Origin: Bacteroidales bacterium
GTDB taxonomy: Bacteria > Bacteroidota > Bacteroidia > Bacteroidales > VadinHA17
Length of the DNA: 64,000 nucleotides
Direction of reading: 5' to 3'
Assembly: GCA_034679225.1 (NCBI GenBank)
Contig: JAXDBC010000038.1
Location: 10,595-74,594, forward strand
Each line of letters starts with the position of its first letter. Positions within the stretch are counted from its first letter, which is position 1. A program made the translations under genes and the position numbers. Shown here piece by piece: positions 16,621-51,205 of the stretch. The notes beneath the pieces are model-generated. The model was not told where the DNA came from. It was given only the letters and a program-made list of their open reading frames with translations, and did not search any database.

Positions 16621-17985
<1,365 letters not shown>

Positions 17986-18005
17986 GAGGATAATTTGATT
18001 TTTTC

Positions 18006-18040
18006 ATCCCCCGGAGTTTATGGCTACGGGGGATTTTTTT
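18006..18040 (+). terminator. Intrinsic terminator after eno
   Basis: ATCCCCCG / CGGGGGAT 8-bp stem followed by T7. Confidence 0.7.
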
Positions 18041-18170
18041 GAGCGTTATAACAATGTAATAACCTGGTTATTAATCTGATATAAAGTTATTAACAATTGT
18101 TGATAACTCATGTTTATATCGCGTGTACAATAACAGACATCCTCTCCATTGCCATATCATATTCTTAATG

Positions 18171-18178
18171 TACATTTG
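18171..18178 (+). promoter_or_regulatory. Bacteroidota-type -7 box (TAcaTTTG) preceding the structured segment
   Basis: Exact TAnnTTTG match about 8-12 nt before the AT-rich to GC-rich transition at about 18186. Confidence 0.4.
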
Positions 18179-18185
18179 TTCTATC

Positions 18186-18660
18186 AGGTGAGCGATAAAA
18201 GACTGCTCAAATGATGTGGAACAGGGAAAGGCTTCTTAACTGAAGCCCGAACAGGTTCGGTCAGACCTTCGGGACTGCATATCAGGAGAGCCGAAGCCCT
18301 GGAAAATGAACTCCGGTTCAGGATACCAGGCAGATCGATGAAACCGGAAACGTTCTTTCAACGATTCAGTCACAGGGCAGGCAGAAGAAAACGGGTTTCG
18401 GCACGTAAAATTTTCTGCAACTGGTACAGATCCTCCGGGAAATGACATCAGTCAGCCTGAATGACGCTTCGTCCCGGAAGCCCGGTCGCGGGACCGGACA
18501 AAAGGACAGCAGGAAGGTAAAGCTGTAACAGGCATTACCGGAACGCCAGGGGCTGATCCCGTATCAGGAAAATCAGCCGGTCAGAATAACAGTAACCTGA
18601 CGCCCGTCGCGGCTTCGGTTGCAAAAGGCGAATGGGAACTATTCAAACGAGTAGTTCCCA
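18186..18660 (+). ncRNA. Candidate large structured ncRNA, family not recognised
   Basis: About 470 nt with no credible ORF, GC and purine enrichment against about 30% GC flanks, and at least 10 local hairpins. One is a UUCG-loop stem needing G-U pairs on the + strand only. A terminal 8-bp hairpin lies at 18634-18659. Confidence 0.45.
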
Positions 18661-18772
18661 TTACTGTTTTATATACTTCCTTTGTTCAAATACACTACCC
18701 GGTTTTCCGAACCTTCCGGCAACATGCTTTTTTCACGTCTTTTACTAACTTTGATTCATTTATTTCCATTAT

Positions 18773-20665
18773 ATGCCTTATTCCGGACTTGCCGATTTTA
18801 TAACACAGCTTGAGAAGGCCGGTGAACTGCACCGGATAAGCTCCTTTGCCGATCCTGTTCTCGAAATAGCGGAAATAACCGACCGGATAGTGAAAACCGG
18901 GGGGAAAGCCCTCCTTTTTGAAAATAACGGTACCCGCTTCCCCCTTCTTATTAATGCCTACGGCTCGGAAAGACGACTTTCAATGGCACTCGGAACAGAC
19001 GATATCTCCGGCACAGCCGGGGAACTGGAAAAGCTGTTCAATATGCTCACCGGCCCCGCCGGATCGATGTCCGGCAGAATAAGATCACTGCCTGAACTGA
19101 TCAGGATTGCCGGGTATCTTCCCCTTAATGTCCGCGGGAGAGGAAGATGCCGGCAGGTGATTCACGGCAAACCCGACCTGACGATGTTTCCGGTTCTTAA
19201 ATGCTGGCCCCACGACGGGGGCAGATTCATAACACTGCCTGTCGTTCATACACGGCACCCTGTTACCGGAAAGACAAATGCCGGAATGTACCGGATGCAG
19301 GTGTTCGGACCCGATACTGCTGGAATGCACTGGCACAGGCACAAAACGGGTGCAAACCATTATGAGGAATGGAAGAAGACAGGAAAGAAAATGCCGGTTT
19401 CGGTTTCACTCGGGGGCGATCCCGTTTATGCATATTGTGCAACTGCACCTTTACCTGAAAATATAAACGAATACATACTTGCCGGCTTCCTCAGGAAAAA
19501 GAGAGTTAAAATGGTGAAATGCCTTACCAATGATCTATATGTTCCGGCTGATGCCGATATTGTAATCGAGGGATATGTCGATCCTGCTGAACCGCCGGTA
19601 TTGGAGGGACCTTTCGGGGATCATACAGGTTTTTACAGTCTGGCTGACCTGTATCCCATTTTTCATGTGACCTGCATCACGCACGCGGCCGATGCCGTTT
19701 ACCCTGCAACCATTGTAGGGATACCGCCCCACGAGGACGCGTGGCTCGCGCTGGCAACCGAAAAAATATTCCTGGCACCCCTGAAGCTGGCCATTCAGCC
19801 GGAAATAATCGATTTTCACATGCCGGTGGCCGGCGTTGCCCATAACCTGGTTATAGTGAAGATAAAAAAGAGCTTCCCCGGGCAGGGGATGAAGGTTATC
19901 AGCTCCCTTTCGGGAGCGGGACAGATGATGTTCACAAAATACATGGTAGTGGTAAGCGGCGATGTCGACATAAGGAATTACAGGGAGCTTGCAGCTCATG
20001 TTGCTGAGAACACGGTGCCGGAGAAGGATTTTGTGTTTAACTCCGGACCTATGGATGTCCTGGATCATTCGTCCGGCAGTTTTTCATTCGGAGGAAAGGC
20101 AGGGGTGGATGCTACGGTAAAACTCCCTGAAGAGACAGGGGGGATACGACCGGCCGGAATATCTTCGGATCCGCGTGACATTGATCCGGCAGGCATCCTG
20201 AATGTACCCTTCATAAAGGGATTCAGGGAATACAGGGTAAACGGCAGGAATAAAATTCTTTTGCTTGGCGCCAATCCTTCGGAAGACAGCGGAAGTGTTG
20301 ACAGGATATGCCGGTTTCTGAAAGAAAACTCCGGCTTGCTGAGCTATTGTCTGGTTTTGGTGCTCGATCACACTGTTGACCTTGATGATATGAATATTGC
20401 AGCCTGGCAGTTGCTTGGAAACTCCGATCCCGTGAGAGATCATTGCTTTATAGCCCCCGGATCGGTACTGATTGACGGAACCATGAAGGTTTACCGGGAG
20501 GGAGGCTTCCCGCGGCCGTGGCCGAATGTTGTATGTGCCGGCAGGGAAACAATAGAAAGCGTTGACAAAAAATGGGATTCCCTTGGTTTTGACCGTTTTG
20601 TACCTTCCTTTTCACTCAGGTACTCAGGTCTTTTAAGAGATGGCGGGGATACTGTATTCTTCTGA
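18773..20665 (+). CDS. UbiD-family (menaquinone/ubiquinone biosynthesis-type) decarboxylase, long 630-aa form
   Basis: N-terminal ADFITQLEKAGELHRIS and GGRFITLP, GMYRMQV, GPFGDHTGFY motifs typical of UbiD. Own TAacTTTG box at 18746-18753. Confidence 0.85.
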   Translation: MPYSGLADFITQLEKAGELHRISSFADPVLEIAEITDRIVKTGGKALLFENNGTRFPLLINAYGSERRLSMALGTDDISGTAGELEKLFNMLTGPAGSMSGRIRSLPELIRIAGYLPLNVRGRGRCRQVIHGKPDLTMFPVLKCWPHDGGRFITLPVVHTRHPVTGKTNAGMYRMQVFGPDTAGMHWHRHKTGANHYEEWKKTGKKMPVSVSLGGDPVYAYCATAPLPENINEYILAGFLRKKRVKMVKCLTNDLYVPADADIVIEGYVDPAEPPVLEGPFGDHTGFYSLADLYPIFHVTCITHAADAVYPATIVGIPPHEDAWLALATEKIFLAPLKLAIQPEIIDFHMPVAGVAHNLVIVKIKKSFPGQGMKVISSLSGAGQMMFTKYMVVVSGDVDIRNYRELAAHVAENTVPEKDFVFNSGPMDVLDHSSGSFSFGGKAGVDATVKLPEETGGIRPAGISSDPRDIDPAGILNVPFIKGFREYRVNGRNKILLLGANPSEDSGSVDRICRFLKENSGLLSYCLVLVLDHTVDLDDMNIAAWQLLGNSDPVRDHCFIAPGSVLIDGTMKVYREGGFPRPWPNVVCAGRETIESVDKKWDSLGFDRFVPSFSLRYSGLLRDGGDTVFF

Positions 20666-22077: not shown

Positions 22078-22229
22078 TGTACTATGTCAGATGTATTGTA
22101 GAAATGTAAAATAAATCTCATTGGTGATAAATATCCATTCAATTAGATAACGTTACTATGCAGGAAAATCTTATTTTTGTTTTTGTGGTATAGTTTTTGA
22201 ACCTTCAGATATATAAATCATCTGCCAAT

Positions 22230-23009
22230 ATGAAGACGATAATCAGGGTTTTGCTGGTGTTCGCGGTGATTTCCGCCGGCGGATCTTTTTATCCGGCTGC
22301 CGGGCAGGAAAATGACGGGATGGTCGAATATACACCCGACTTCCGGTTCGAAGACGGTATTTACCTGAATTTCGATCAGGTTAAGACAAACAAGCCCATA
22401 CCAAAGGCAAAGATTCTGACTTCGACCGATTACAATGACAAGGATTTTTTCAAGAATCTGCTGGAGTCGGACAAAATCTACTTTTACGACGCGATGGGAG
22501 TCAGACAGGAAATTGACAAGTCGGAGATATGGGCATTTGCCAGGAACGGTATACTGTATATTCAGGTACAGGGGAACTTCAACAGGATAACTTTTATAGG
22601 GAGTATCTGCCATTTTGTTGCCGACGTGACATCGTATGACAACAGGTACTACAATTATCCTTACGGGTATTACGATCCCTACATGTCCTATCCTTACTAC
22701 AGGTACCCTTACAGCCTTTACAGTCCCTATTCCTATGGTAACTACTATTCTCCGTACGGACCTTATTATTCTCCTTACAGAAATAATATCGGGCGCAATG
22801 AGCTAAGGCAGTATCTTATTGATTTTGACACGGGTAATGTCCTGGAATATGATGTTGAGAATACGGAGCTTTTGCTTATGAAGGACCAGGAGCTTTACGA
22901 GGAATACATGCATCTCGCGAGAAAAAAGAGAAAGGATTTGATGTTTGTTTACATACGCAAGTTTAACGAAAGGAATCCTCTGTATATTCCTTCAAACCAG
23001 GGACTTTAA
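22230..23009 (+). CDS. Secreted hypothetical protein with Tyr/Pro-rich low-complexity block
   Basis: Signal peptide MKTIIRVLLVFAVISAGG from the ATG at 22230. About 50 aa YxPY-type tract (YNYPYGYYDPYMSYPYYRYPYSLYSPYSYGNYYSPYGPYYSPY). Confidence 0.7.
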   Translation: MKTIIRVLLVFAVISAGGSFYPAAGQENDGMVEYTPDFRFEDGIYLNFDQVKTNKPIPKAKILTSTDYNDKDFFKNLLESDKIYFYDAMGVRQEIDKSEIWAFARNGILYIQVQGNFNRITFIGSICHFVADVTSYDNRYYNYPYGYYDPYMSYPYYRYPYSLYSPYSYGNYYSPYGPYYSPYRNNIGRNELRQYLIDFDTGNVLEYDVENTELLLMKDQELYEEYMHLARKKRKDLMFVYIRKFNERNPLYIPSNQGL

Positions 23010-23855
23010 ATGAAGAGACTTTTTTTGTTCTTTCAGCTGACAGTTTTCTGCGGATTACTGTCCGGGCAGGCGCCTTTTCCTTCAGGCAGTGAAATCAGGC
23101 AGTTTATGTCATCCACAACATGTGTCGTGCTTGAAAGCGGCAACACAATCTATAATGCATATATCAGGCAGGCAGTTACGGAATATTGGACCGTCACGCC
23201 TTTCGAGTTCATAAATCAGGACGATTTTGATGAAAAACGCGGCGACCCTGCCTTCTCCTTCCTTATCCTTACCGAAACACGTCCGGCCAACGACAAGTCG
23301 GGCTCCTCATATAATTTTTTAAACCTTCTACAGGGTAAGAATGTACCTGAAATAGGTAAAATGCCTGAGATATCGGCAATTCCCCTTTCAGCCGGCGGAG
23401 AGGACGATCTGGAATACGGGTATAAACTGGGTGCAATATTGTTGTTTATGCAGAATCATGCCCGTCTGATAGCTGAAAACCCCATGATGGTAGGCAGAAG
23501 ATTGCTAAGCTATTACAACCGGTTCACCCCCGAAGTAAGGAGCAGGAAGATACTTGCAACAGAGGCGGATCTTTCACCGGCTCTTGCTTCCGCGGATAAA
23601 ATAAAAGAACTGTATCCTTACGATTTTGAGATTGTTTCAGAAGATGAGATTGTCACGGCTATTCATGAAAAGACACCCAATATACTGATCCTGCATAAAG
23701 TAGGTCCCGGAGAGGATGCGACGGCAGGTTTCTGTTACAAGATGCTTTTCGGAACCGACGATTCGGGTTTATATTACTACAACCAGCACAGGATAGATGG
23801 GAATAACCCCAACGGACTGCTTCCCGCGGATCTGAAGCGTTTTATCAGGCCCTGA
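23010..23855 (+). CDS. Secreted hypothetical protein
   Basis: 281-aa ORF with signal peptide, TAAATG junction with the upstream gene. Confidence 0.7.
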   Translation: MKRLFLFFQLTVFCGLLSGQAPFPSGSEIRQFMSSTTCVVLESGNTIYNAYIRQAVTEYWTVTPFEFINQDDFDEKRGDPAFSFLILTETRPANDKSGSSYNFLNLLQGKNVPEIGKMPEISAIPLSAGGEDDLEYGYKLGAILLFMQNHARLIAENPMMVGRRLLSYYNRFTPEVRSRKILATEADLSPALASADKIKELYPYDFEIVSEDEIVTAIHEKTPNILILHKVGPGEDATAGFCYKMLFGTDDSGLYYYNQHRIDGNNPNGLLPADLKRFIRP

Positions 23856-48662: not shown

Positions 48663-51086
48663 TCAGAATTCCAGTCCCAGCCTCAGCATAAAATTGGTTC
48701 CTGCCTGGGGAAAATAATATGCCCAGCTAAGTTCCTTTCCGTCTTCAAACCAGTTGCCTCCATATGCATTGCTCACATATCTTGCATTGAAGACATTGTT
48801 TACAAGAAGTTGAATACCGGCGCTCCTGAGGTTTTTAATCACCGGTTCGAAATCGATCATAATGTCGCTGACCATGTATGGATCCAGCATCCTTTCACTG
48901 TTCATGGTGTTGTCGAAATACTGCTTCCCGACATATTTTGTAATGAAATGCAGTTTCAGGGAAGGGAGGATATTTGCATACAGATTGCTGCTTCCTGTAA
49001 TTGAAGGCGAGTAGGCTATATCAACCTTACCGAGATGAAGGCTCTTGTATTCCTCCGACCAGTCGGATGTATTATAATCAATATAATGCTCTACAAAATC
49101 AACTATCTTGTTGCTGCTCAGTGTCAGGTTCAAATCGAGACCGATGAAATCTGCCGGTTTGAAGCCTGCTGTCAGTTCGGCTCCTATCCGGTAGCTTTTT
49201 TCGACATTTGTCATTATTGAATAGCCCACATTGCTTAGTTCGCCCGTCGGCACCAACTGGTCGCGATACAGCATTCCGTACAGGTTGAGCCCTGCCGAGC
49301 TCTTTGCCGCTCTTACAACATAGCCGGCCTCAATGTCGTAAAGCCGCTCAGGTTTTGGTGTTGCCTCACTGTCGCCCGAAGCCTCCTTGAAATCGGTTCG
49401 TGTCGGTTCCCTGTTAGCCACCGACAACGAAAGGAAAGCCTCCTGTCCTGGAAAGAGCCTGAGGAAGAGTCCTGCCTTAGGATTGAAAAAATGGAATTCA
49501 TGAGTCTGCCCGATATCCTTTAGATCGTCGTCTTCGCCCCTGAGCGAGTAGTTGACATGCCTGTACTGAAGGTCGCCAAAAGCCGACAGTTTATCTGTTA
49601 ATGAATAGTTTATCTTCCCGTAAAGGCTTGCTTCCTTTTTTTCACCATTGTTGAAATACCATTGATAATTGTTCTCCGCTGATCCGGGGTATCTCGTCCA
49701 GATAATCCTTCCATAATGGTCGCCTGAATAGAGATTAATTCCGCCTCCGATCTTTGAGTCAATTTTATCTTTACGGTAATTCAGCGACCAGACAAGTCCG
49801 TGAAAACCGTTTGACATCCATTTTCTCCGGATCAGGTCGGTTTCATCCATTGTAAGGCTTCCGATGGTCACTTCCGGAAGGCCGTATTTGCTGTACTTTT
49901 CATCCTCCCTGAACTCTTCGTAATAGCCTTTGCCGTAAGTATAGTGAAGGGCGGAATTTAAGGAAACAAAATCATTTATTTTCCTGCCGAATATCAGGTG
50001 ATAGTGATTCTGGGTGTAGTTATCGCTTTCGTTGTCATAATAATGCACCTTTCCCAGGTCATCGGAGTATTCTCCGGCCGGATTATAACGTCTGTCGATG
50101 TTAAGCATCTCTTTCGGCACTCCCCACCATCCTATCCCTGTTTTTTCCTTTCCAAGTATAACATTAGCTTTTATAAGCGATTTTCCAGTCCGGAACAGAG
50201 CGCTGAACAAGGCCGAATTATGTTCCGATCCTGTTCTGGCAATATATCCATTGCTTCTAAGATCGGACCAGCGCATCTGGAATGCAAACCTCTCTTTCAG
50301 CAATCCTGTTCCGGCTGTAATGCTGTTTCTGAAAGTTCCGTAGGAGCCGGCAGCCGAACTGATCCCTGCAAATGGTTCGTTTTCAATACCTTTAGTTTGG
50401 ATGTTTATTGAAGCCCCGAAGGCACCGGCCCCGTTAGATGAAGTTCCCACTCCTCTCTGTACCTGAATATTGTCGACAGAGGAAGCCAGGTCGGGCAGGT
50501 CGACCCAGAAGACCTGTTGCGATTCGGGATCATTTAGGGGAATTCCGTCAATGGTGACATTTATCCTTGAAGCATCGGTTCCCCTTATCCTCAGACTGGT
50601 ATATCCGATTCCGTTTCCAGATTCCGATGTCCCGACAAATGAAGGTGTAAGATTCAAAAGAAAAGGTATTCCCTGGCCGGAATTATTTTTTTCCAGTTTT
50701 TCTCCCGTCACATTTGAATAAGCGAGCGGAGTTTGTTCCCCGGCCCTTGTCGCGCTTATTATGACATCGTTGGTTACAATGGTTTTCAGTCGCAGACTCA
50801 CATCCTCTTTCATATCTCCTGTCACATGTATCTCCCTGATCTGTGTTTCATATCCCATGAAGGAATATCTCAGGGTGTAATACCCGGATTTAAGTCGTGC
50901 GAGCATGTAGTTCCCGGAGGCATCGGTATGGACACCGGTAAAAGTTCCCTCAATAATCACGGCGGCACCCGCGAGTGCTTCGCCAGCAGAGTCGGTAACT
51001 TTGCCGCTGAGGCTCTGGCCTGTCATATGAAAGGAAAAGGAACCCAGCAGAATAAGTGACGACAGAAAAAGCAGTTTTTTCCTCAT
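48663..51086 (-). CDS. TonB-dependent receptor (thiamine-regulon outer-membrane transporter type)
   Basis: 807 aa, CarboxypepD_reg N-terminus, plug, C-terminal ...LRLGLEF. Preceded by a TPP riboswitch and followed 4 nt later by the pnuT-like gene. Confidence 0.9.
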   Translation of the reverse strand: MRKKLLFLSSLILLGSFSFHMTGQSLSGKVTDSAGEALAGAAVIIEGTFTGVHTDASGNYMLARLKSGYYTLRYSFMGYETQIREIHVTGDMKEDVSLRLKTIVTNDVIISATRAGEQTPLAYSNVTGEKLEKNNSGQGIPFLLNLTPSFVGTSESGNGIGYTSLRIRGTDASRINVTIDGIPLNDPESQQVFWVDLPDLASSVDNIQVQRGVGTSSNGAGAFGASINIQTKGIENEPFAGISSAAGSYGTFRNSITAGTGLLKERFAFQMRWSDLRSNGYIARTGSEHNSALFSALFRTGKSLIKANVILGKEKTGIGWWGVPKEMLNIDRRYNPAGEYSDDLGKVHYYDNESDNYTQNHYHLIFGRKINDFVSLNSALHYTYGKGYYEEFREDEKYSKYGLPEVTIGSLTMDETDLIRRKWMSNGFHGLVWSLNYRKDKIDSKIGGGINLYSGDHYGRIIWTRYPGSAENNYQWYFNNGEKKEASLYGKINYSLTDKLSAFGDLQYRHVNYSLRGEDDDLKDIGQTHEFHFFNPKAGLFLRLFPGQEAFLSLSVANREPTRTDFKEASGDSEATPKPERLYDIEAGYVVRAAKSSAGLNLYGMLYRDQLVPTGELSNVGYSIMTNVEKSYRIGAELTAGFKPADFIGLDLNLTLSSNKIVDFVEHYIDYNTSDWSEEYKSLHLGKVDIAYSPSITGSSNLYANILPSLKLHFITKYVGKQYFDNTMNSERMLDPYMVSDIMIDFEPVIKNLRSAGIQLLVNNVFNARYVSNAYGGNWFEDGKELSWAYYFPQAGTNFMLRLGLEF

Positions 51087-51109
51087 CTCTGTATCAGTTA
51101 AAACTATAT

Positions 51110-51205
51110 ACCGGGTGCATTTGTTCCCTACGCCGGCATTACCCGGATCAGGTGCAAGGGTATGATCTCAGCCCGTAATAATAAGGCACCCCGTAAATGA
51201 CGATG
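51110..51205 (-). promoter_or_regulatory. TPP (THI-box) riboswitch
   Basis: The minus strand reads CAUUUACGGGGUGCC...GGGCUGAGAUCAUACCCUUGCACCUGAUCCGGGUAAUGCCGGCGUAGGGAACAAAUG. It shows the canonical CUGAGA, ACCUGAUC.GG.UAAUGCC.GCGUAGGGAA core and a CAUUU/AAAUG P1, about 25 nt before the ATG at 51086. Confidence 0.9.

Follow-up and report, generated by a model that had tools for sequence, protein, structure and literature searches.

Bacterial noncoding RNAs longer than ~400 nt and with rRNA-like complexity are very rare, the examples being RNase P, tmRNA, OLE, GOLLD, ROOL, and HEARO. Earlier large RNA classes opened new biology in the form of RNP machines, RNA cages, and guide RNAs; among them, ROOL and GOLLD are large ornate RNAs that form RNA-only multimers. 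OLE RNA has its own promoter, lies in tandem with a downstream gene, occurs in anaerobes, and was without a known function at its discovery (PMC9723947). Here, we describe a structured RNA predicted to be ~490 nt long and encoded directly upstream of a ubiD gene in a 64-kb window (the whole 64,000-nt stretch of Bacteroidales DNA that was analyzed). The RNA family is new in the sense that it is without a detectable relative in Rfam 15 or in the searched literature.

OLE (RF01071), which is found in anaerobic or extremophilic Firmicutes, resembles the present RNA in its length of several hundred nucleotides, its intricate multi-junction fold, and its invariant sequence blocks, as well as in having a promoter of its own (here predicted), a fixed tandem arrangement with one downstream gene, and an occurrence in anaerobes. 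However, OLE matches the present RNA neither in sequence nor in structure, is longer (~610 nt versus ~490 nt), and precedes oapA rather than a gene for a UbiD-family decarboxylase, and the phylum concerned here is Bacteroidota. Moreover, oapA is present only in RNA-bearing genomes, while the long form of ubiD also occurs without the RNA (loci L201 to L206). ROOL and GOLLD (RF03087 and RF01998) are likewise large, supported by covariation, rich in tetraloops, and found from metagenomes. By contrast, their models do not match here, and they are often associated with phages or tRNAs, while the present RNA matches nothing in the phage and viral collections and resides at a housekeeping chromosomal locus. 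Bacterial RNase P RNA (RF00010 and RF00011) is similar in size, in having a fold closed by pairing of the 5′ and 3′ ends, and in having conserved strands at a central junction. It differs in that its P4 and CR-I to CR-V sequences are absent here (the P4 strands GAGGAAAGUCC...ACAGAAnCCGGCUUA occur neither in the sequence nor in a consensus of 58 sequences), in that its covariance models give no match at E ≤ 10, and in that RNase P RNA is universal while the present RNA is confined to one clade.

The searches for known families covered the 4227 covariance models of Rfam 15, including those for OLE, ROOL, GOLLD, HEARO, raiA, RNase P, tmRNA, SRP, 6S, group I and II introns, and riboswitches. At gathering thresholds, cmscan on the 64-kb window returned nothing in 18183-18672; at E ≤ 10 on 17950-18850 (901 nt), it returned terminator-like noise on the eno terminator and no match inside the element. 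The same models gave no match in 15 divergent homologous loci or in two contigs, L083 and L089, which carry only part of the RNA. ARAGORN detected neither a tRNA nor a tmRNA in 17900-18900, and the hallmarks of RNase P and tmRNA, which an earlier note on this DNA had sought by eye and not found, are indeed missing. A blastn search of a phage collection and a pattern scan of a viral-contig collection detected nothing similar. The RNA is not described in the accessible text of the literature retrieved by topic and by sequence strings, which included the 2024 "50 genomes" ncRNA paper.

The RNA gene and its homologues

The earlier note was made from the sequence alone and pointed to an ORF-free, GC-rich, and purine-rich island at 18186-18660, between a terminator hairpin of eno and a ubiD gene with its own −7 box, as a candidate large structured noncoding RNA of unrecognized family. 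The island is there: Across 18184-18672, GC content is 51% and purine content 57.5%, compared to 32% GC in the flanks, and the + strand holds no ORF ≥40 aa between the eno terminator and the ATG of ubiD (18773). Likewise, the eno hairpin and the ubiD box are present at the positions given, and the interpretation as a large structured RNA of an unrecognized family is supported by strong covariation and by the lack of an Rfam 15 match. The unit is slightly larger than proposed, extending from about 18183 to 18672 (Table 1). It coincides with a block of conservation at 18180-18675, outside of which identity falls to 0.3-0.5 in both flanks, and it is present in a single copy in the 64-kb window and once per locus in the homologues.

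Homologues were identified in about 178 related loci. First, loci were fetched by means of the UbiD-family protein, using one genome per GTDB species, and searched with an nhmmer profile of the element in the window. This fetch yielded 63 Bacteroidales loci and 15 loci from other phyla, mostly Verrucomicrobiota. The element was found on the same strand and just upstream of ubiD in all 59 Bacteroidales loci with enough upstream DNA (E values of 1e-150 to 1e-54; 57-93% nucleotide identity), while nhmmer did not detect it in the 15 loci of other phyla. Second, a three-block pattern of invariant residues (GATAAARGnnnGC...GGAAACG...AATAACAGTA), which matched 55 of the known loci, retrieved at least 120 metagenome contigs, and the element was present in 119 of 120 among the matches listed. 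The sources of these listed contigs are peat, fen, wetland, freshwater sediments, digesters, and activated sludge. Overall, at least 155 unique full-length sequences were obtained, of which 134 are <95% identical. The clade is narrow (rpoA at least 78% identical). As judged from the sequences retrieved, the RNA is restricted to one family-level clade of environmental, anaerobic Bacteroidales.

The homologues also inform on the ends of the transcript. In 152 of 155 unique homologues, the −7 box that the earlier note had assigned to the element is found as TAnnTTTG at a fixed distance from GAGCGAT (−19 or −20). Because this offset is so constant, transcription is predicted to start at A18183, which is nearly invariant. 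The eno terminator stands between eno and the RNA gene. At the 3′ end, the predicted terminator P18 is a 14-bp hairpin, perfectly palindromic and followed by a T-run. Its stem (18633-18639/18654-18660) is identical in 134 of 134 sequences while the other helices covary freely, which suggests a role beyond termination. Thus, P18 is probably also a functional element in addition to being the candidate terminator.

Table 1. Positions of the RNA, its structural elements, and neighboring features in the 64-kb window
Feature	Position	Strand	Observation
eno intrinsic terminator, CCCCCGGAG...CTACGGGGG, then T-run	18006..18040	+	Sequence; terminator-like sub-threshold Rfam matches
Bacteroidetes −7 promoter box of the RNA gene, TACATTTG	18171..18178	+	TAnnTTTG at fixed offset
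Structured RNA, predicted primary transcript (~490 nt)	18183..18672	+	Ends read from motifs
P1	18184-18189/18595-18600	+	18186:18598 AU in 103, GC in 29
5′ junction strand, GAGCGAUAAAAG	18190-18201	+	Residues invariant in 58/58 sequences
P2	18201-18204/18579-18582	+	18202:18581 AU in 88, GC in 35, GU in 10
3′ junction strand, AGAAUAACAGUA, flanked by P2 and P1 3′ strands	within 18579-18600	+	Invariant
Domain 1 (P3-P6)	18205..18291	+	Helices 91-100% paired
P3	18205-08/18288-91	+	Domain 1
P4	18213-18/18278-83	+	Domain 1
P5	18219-26/18251-58	+	6 pairs with double changes
P5a, invariant CUUAAnUG loop	18231-35/18242-46	+	3 pairs with double changes
Antisense 70-aa ORF, not a gene	18236..18448	−	Intact in 3/134; no 3-base periodicity
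P6, UUCG loop	18262-67/18272-77	+	Domain 1
Domain 2 (P8-P13a), closed by P7 (18293-96/18467-70)	18293..18470	+	Covariation
P8 and P8a	18298-303/18325-30	+	All 6 P8 pairs with double changes
P9	18333-43/18356-66	+	Invariant GAAA-tetraloop hairpin 18345-52 inside
P10, P11, P12, P12a (UUCG)		+	Domain 2; P12a 18395:18402 GC in 94, AU in 36
P13 and P13a (UUCG)		+	Domain 2
Domain 3 (P14, P14a, P15, P15a, P16)	18471..18578	+	Covariation
P14	18471-74/18504-07	+	Domain 3
P14a	18482-87/18492-97	+	18484:18495 GC in 64, CG in 52; 18482:18497 CG in 81, UA in 31, AU in 9
P15	18509-10/18545-46	+	Domain 3
P15a	18516-23/18532-39	+	6 pairs with double changes
P16	18551-54/18575-78	+	Domain 3
P17 hairpin, UUCG-type loop, outside P1-closed core	18601-13/18618-30	+	95% of cells paired; 8/11 pairs with double changes
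P18 intrinsic terminator, hairpin AAUGGGAACUA...UAGUUCCCAUU, then UUGUUUUAU	18631..18672	+	Terminator scan
−7 promoter box of ubiD, TAACTTTG	18746..18753	+	TAnnTTTG conserved in spacer
UbiD-family menaquinone biosynthesis decarboxylase (SCO4490 type), long form	18773..20665	+	TIGR03701, 566 bits

Fold, strand, and coding potential

Using 58 sequences, RNAalifold returned a fold of 97 pairs, 50 of which have compensatory double changes. A fuller model was then derived by RNAalifold from the 134 nonredundant sequences, mapped onto alignment A1, and counted independently. This consensus fold comprises 27 helices with 136 pairs, and its pairing was compared to that of slid controls in which the 3′ partners were moved by 1-3 columns. 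In the fold, 94.0% of cells are paired compared to 27-44% in the controls; double changes are found in 74 pairs and 393 cells compared to 27-41 pairs and 65-117 cells; and the covariation score is 0.220 compared to ≤0.071. None of 500 shuffles reached any of the observed fold measures. Because the sequences are related, there are fewer independent covariation events than the cell counts suggest, and the narrowness of the clade (rpoA ≥78% identical) also limits their number; nevertheless, three or four pair types are seen in many helices despite the relatedness.

The strand can be assigned. G·U cells outnumber A·C cells by about 5:1 (1621 versus 309), which together with the promoter box and the T-run establishes that the RNA is read from the + strand, as the earlier note had argued from the G-U pairs of a single hairpin. 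The MFE z-score is −4.7 for the + strand and −3.75 for the − strand.

In the consensus fold, the molecule is closed by the covarying long-range helices P1 and P2, between which lie the two invariant junction strands; these strands may pair in part, as P1a. Domains 1 to 3 follow each other within this closure. GGAAACGUUCUUUCA, which contains the GAAA-tetraloop hairpin of P9, is nearly invariant, and four hairpins end in UUCG-type loops. P17 and the P18 hairpin (18631-18662) are both located outside P1. Covarying and Watson-Crick-compatible columns outside the nested fold, which were inspected for pseudoknots and extra helices, are isolated pairs and do not form a consecutive run; we attribute these pairs to shared ancestry.

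Of nine helices drawn by hand in the earlier note, the covariation-supported consensus retains six and replaces three. The helices at 18230-18247, 18298-18330 with its inner hairpin, 18482-18497, 18609-18622, and 18634-18659 are recovered, while only the base of the helix at 18551-18578 remains. As for the other three, the strands of 18434-18478 take part in P14 and in a local CCUUCGGG hairpin, the helix at 18506-18526 gives way to P15 and P15a, and the strands of 18580-18601 pair with the 5′ end to form P1 and P2, the long-range helices.

A protein-coding gene or pseudogene was considered as a source of the conservation and rejected. Variability by codon phase is flat (0.167/0.162/0.169), and the lengths of gap runs are mostly not multiples of three (142, 2099, and 760 runs with remainders of 0, 1, and 2, respectively). 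The sole ORF inside the element is the antisense frame of 70 aa, which the earlier note had already judged to be noncoding, and this frame is lost in almost all homologues. In public assemblies of the same organism, the RNA interval is left without a gene call.

The RNA and the adjacent ubiD gene

We consider it probable, with a rough probability of 0.6, that 18183-18672 on the + strand gives rise to its own transcript, which acts in trans as a folded RNA. In this scheme, transcription would start from the RNA's own σA-type promoter with the −7 box at 18171-18178 and would end at its own hairpin plus U-tract, i.e., P18. In the fold, P1 and P2 bring the invariant single strands GAGCGAUAAAAG and AGAAUAACAGUA together, and three multi-helix domains with UUCG and GAAA tetraloop caps radiate from the P1/P2 junction. 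By analogy with OLE, ROOL, and GOLLD, large ornate RNAs of the same general kind, the conserved core at this junction and the 3′ hairpin, whose sequence is invariant, would provide the binding or active sites of a ribonucleoprotein or an RNA-only particle. Based on the promoter and terminator motifs and the distribution of homologues, the RNA is best read as independently transcribed, lineage-specific, and trans-acting rather than as a leader of ubiD. The RNA may be functionally connected to the adjacent gene for quinone biosynthesis, although this reading does not depend on such a connection.

The constant neighbor of the RNA has to be accounted for by any explanation of its function. The order eno-element-ubiD is conserved, and the usual arrangement is rpoA-rplQ-eno-RNA-ubiD followed by a gene for a hybrid histidine kinase on the other strand. 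In five loci (L008, L090, L105, L122, and L151), eno is missing and the order is rplQ-RNA-ubiD. In three others (L055, L109, and L127), the upstream region is unrelated, with L127 having an ORF for a group II intron-type reverse transcriptase upstream of the RNA. In all of these rearranged loci, the RNA is still directly before ubiD, which is the strongest point in favor of a link between the two. The RNA and ubiD are never apart in about 175 loci among the matches listed. Because the clade is narrow, synteny by descent accounts for much of this adjacency; the adjacency would also fit cis-regulation or co-function.

An unlikely alternative in our assessment is that the RNA is a cis-acting leader of the ubiD mRNA, i.e., a giant riboswitch or attenuator in which P18 is a regulated terminator and which would sense a prenyl-quinone or prFMN metabolite, or a protein. 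Like riboswitch and attenuator leaders, the RNA directly precedes a metabolic gene in the same orientation, and a hairpin plus U-tract forms its 3′ end. This arrangement holds in the about 175 loci, including those with rearranged upstream contexts, and the terminator is immediately before ubiD, in some loci 19-60 nt from the ATG. However, the RNA differs from such leaders in having its own predicted promoter and in that a second predicted promoter, that of ubiD, follows. A strict TAnnTTTG box is found in the spacer between the RNA and ubiD in 123 of 163 loci, and 115 of these boxes end 15-24 nt before the ATG; in most loci without a strict box, TATCTTTA is found at its place. Thus, as far as motifs tell, nearly all loci have a conserved −7 box for ubiD itself, placed at promoter distance, even where only 32-60 nt follow the RNA or where the box abuts the T-run of the RNA. 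The spacer from P18 to the ATG is not conserved and varies from 19 to >350 nt. Also, typical riboswitch expression platforms differ from P18, the stem of which is invariant, and the only candidate antiterminator seen by eye is a weak 6-bp pairing of GUUCUU (18352-57) with GGGAAC (18634-39). Finally, at 490 nt, the RNA is about twice the size of the largest known riboswitch aptamers, it is found in one gene context only, and sister lineages have the long form of ubiD but not the RNA. It is possible that transcription reads through P18 into ubiD.

Also improbable is that the RNA is a dedicated partner of its neighbor, forming an OLE-like ribonucleoprotein with the long-form UbiD or with the membrane machinery for quinone biosynthesis. 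Three observations are in favor of such a partnership. First, the RNA-ubiD pair is intact across at least three different upstream contexts. Second, the adjacent enzyme is an unusual long form with a C-terminal extension of ~175 aa. Third, ole likewise has its own promoter and is in tandem with its partner gene (PMC9723947). On closer inspection, the extension argues against this possibility. Pfam detects UbiD_N, UbiD, and UbiD_C in the protein, with UbiD_C matched in two stretches. The extension resembles a second UbiD_C-like repeat, and the idea that it is an RNA-binding domain was dropped. It is also widespread, with an exhaustive search returning 290 cluster representatives, many of them proteins of 600-660 aa. 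A word-indexed protein search for the extension returned only seven fragments.

Importantly, the long form is found without the RNA in other lineages. In the six distant long-form loci L201 to L206, nhmmer detected no RNA, and the next upstream gene is 33-85 nt away, leaving no room for it. The arrangement in L201 is rpoA-rplQ-citrate synthase-ubiD and its UbiD is 52% identical; L204 has an eno-ubiD arrangement with a UbiD that is 37% identical; identity is 46% in L202 and L203 and 31% in L205 and L206. The idea that the RNA is a constant companion of long-form UbiD was, therefore, rejected. Thus, the eno/rplQ-ubiD neighborhood predates the RNA, and the RNA is dispensable for the enzyme. Unlike oapA, the partner gene would not be exclusive to RNA-bearing organisms. 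Two conserved neighboring ORFs of unknown family (22197-23855) were also considered as partners; both have signal peptides and look secreted, and they were set aside.

More speculatively, and with somewhat less confidence than we place in either a leader or a partner function, the RNA could be the first representative of a new class among the large ornate RNAs of bacteria. The invariant P1/P2 junction, with GAGCGAUAAAAG opposite AGAAUAACAGUA, and the conserved three-domain scaffold would then make up a catalytic or ligand-binding center, and the RNA would be a ribozyme, an RNA-based enzyme cofactor, or an RNA-only assembly, possibly coupled to prenyl-quinone biosynthesis by way of its UbiD-type neighbor. 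Should the RNA prove to be tied to the UbiD-type decarboxylase, it would be the first to be linked to the biosynthesis of quinones. If it is not, it would still be a new lineage-specific RNA of the housekeeping type in a phylum in which little RNA biology is known. In either case, over 150 different natural sequences are available, the secondary structure is well constrained, the gene boundaries are clear, and the RNA has a fixed genomic address in abundant, uncultured Bacteroidales of wetlands, sediments, and digesters.

Core-only contigs and DNA-level explanations

Two of the metagenome contigs, L083 and L089, carry a segment of ~407 nt that corresponds to the window from 18192/18194 to 18599/18602 and is without the 5′ strand of P1 and without P17 and P18. 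The contigs represent two species with full RNAs that are 87% identical. Full-length copies with 100% identity to these segments exist in L025 (also in L124 and L193) and in L009. Outside the segment, the two contigs do not match each other, and neither matches the usual locus.

It is very unlikely that these contigs reveal the functional unit to be an internal core of ~407 nt (~18194-18600) that is processed out or self-copying, with the 5′ strand of P1 and P17-P18 being precursor parts. Two species carry exactly this core, and the breakpoints agree within 3 nt. However, the core alone is seen in only 2 of 120 contigs among the matches listed, and the 100% identity together with the shortness of the contigs suggests assembly or cDNA chimeras. 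Moreover, P1, P17, and P18 are all conserved, with covariation in P1 and P17, indicating that they are under selection at the RNA level, and there is no sign of a transposase, a reverse transcriptase, or a target site. The shared breakpoints could reflect processing to a stable RNA whose ends were captured in chimeric assemblies, possibly from metatranscriptomes.

The last alternative, that there is no RNA and that the locus is a protein-coding gene, degraded or atypical, or else an operator, repeat, or other element that acts as DNA, could draw on P18, which as a perfect and invariant palindrome is a possible protein-binding site on DNA, and on the existence of one antisense ORF, but it is effectively refuted by compensatory changes that keep the pairing, the excess of G·U over A·C, the lack of codon periodicity, an ORF that is intact in 3 of 134 sequences, indels that are not in threes, and gene callers that place nothing here.

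Elsewhere in the 64-kb window, cmscan detected a TPP riboswitch at 51107-51203, which is the sole match at gathering thresholds.

Age and lineage-specific variation of the RNA gene

In the distant locus L204:3-2411, where the UbiD protein is 37% identical, eno lies directly upstream of ubiD with a gap of 85 nt, and the RNA is absent between the two genes. The adjacency of eno and ubiD therefore predates the RNA gene. The RNA itself shows lineage-specific expansions. In L050:3353-3924, an insertion of ~57 nt duplicates the CCUUCGGGA hairpin region (P13 of the consensus fold), and in a subgroup of seven related loci (L037, L039, L043, L057, L058, L036 and L034) hairpin P8a is extended by 9-11 nt (GGUCCCAGACCA; columns 147-157 of the homologue alignment A1).

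Partial copies and rearranged neighborhoods

In two short contigs, L083 and L089, the RNA is represented by its internal ~407 nt only. Each segment is 100% identical to the full-length RNA of a species, a different one in each contig; the flanking sequences are unrelated, whereas the breakpoints are almost the same. They may be chimeras formed at the ends of processed RNA or, alternatively, ectopic copies. In a third contig, L127, the eno position upstream of the RNA (1251-1762) is taken by an ORF for a reverse transcriptase/maturase of the group II intron type, which points to a mobile-intron insertion beside the RNA gene.

The ubiD gene and other genes of the window

The sequence of the ubiD promoter box is strikingly uniform, reading TATCTTTG or TATCTTTA in most of the loci compared, and in some of them the box immediately adjoins the T-run of the RNA terminator. 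The distance from box to ATG is 15-24 nt, a spacing implying that the ubiD mRNA would have a very short 5' UTR. The decarboxylase encoded in the window is a long form by virtue of a C-terminal extension, which no Pfam or NCBIfam model names and which resembles a second UbiD_C-like repeat. This extension is present in 290 cluster representatives, and the proteins are often 600-660 aa long.

Two adjacent ORFs have no NCBIfam match, and the called genes that correspond to them carry no recorded Pfam hit; both are kept near the RNA/ubiD locus in 86-100 related contigs. One of them contains a Tyr/Pro-rich repeat region. Elsewhere in the window, a TonB-dependent receptor ORF lies directly downstream of a TPP riboswitch, and together they probably make up a Bacteroidetes-type arrangement for thiamine uptake.

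Coordinates of features in the window and in related contigs
Feature	Location	Strand or orientation	Remarks
ubiD promoter box	window 18746-18753		equivalent position in about 160 loci
UbiD-family C-terminal extension	window 20135-20662	+	~175 aa, residues 455-630
ORF, one of adjacent pair (270 and 281 aa)	window 22197-23009	+	signal peptide
ORF, other of the pair	window 23010-23855	+	signal peptide
TonB-dependent outer-membrane receptor gene	window 48663-51086	-	
TPP riboswitch	window 51107-51203	-	RF00059, 60.7 bits
Internal segment of RNA	L083:862-1268	RNA orientation	~407 nt
Internal segment of RNA	L089:860-1266	RNA orientation	~407 nt
Reverse transcriptase/maturase ORF	L127:2-947	RNA orientation	group II intron type; upstream of RNA
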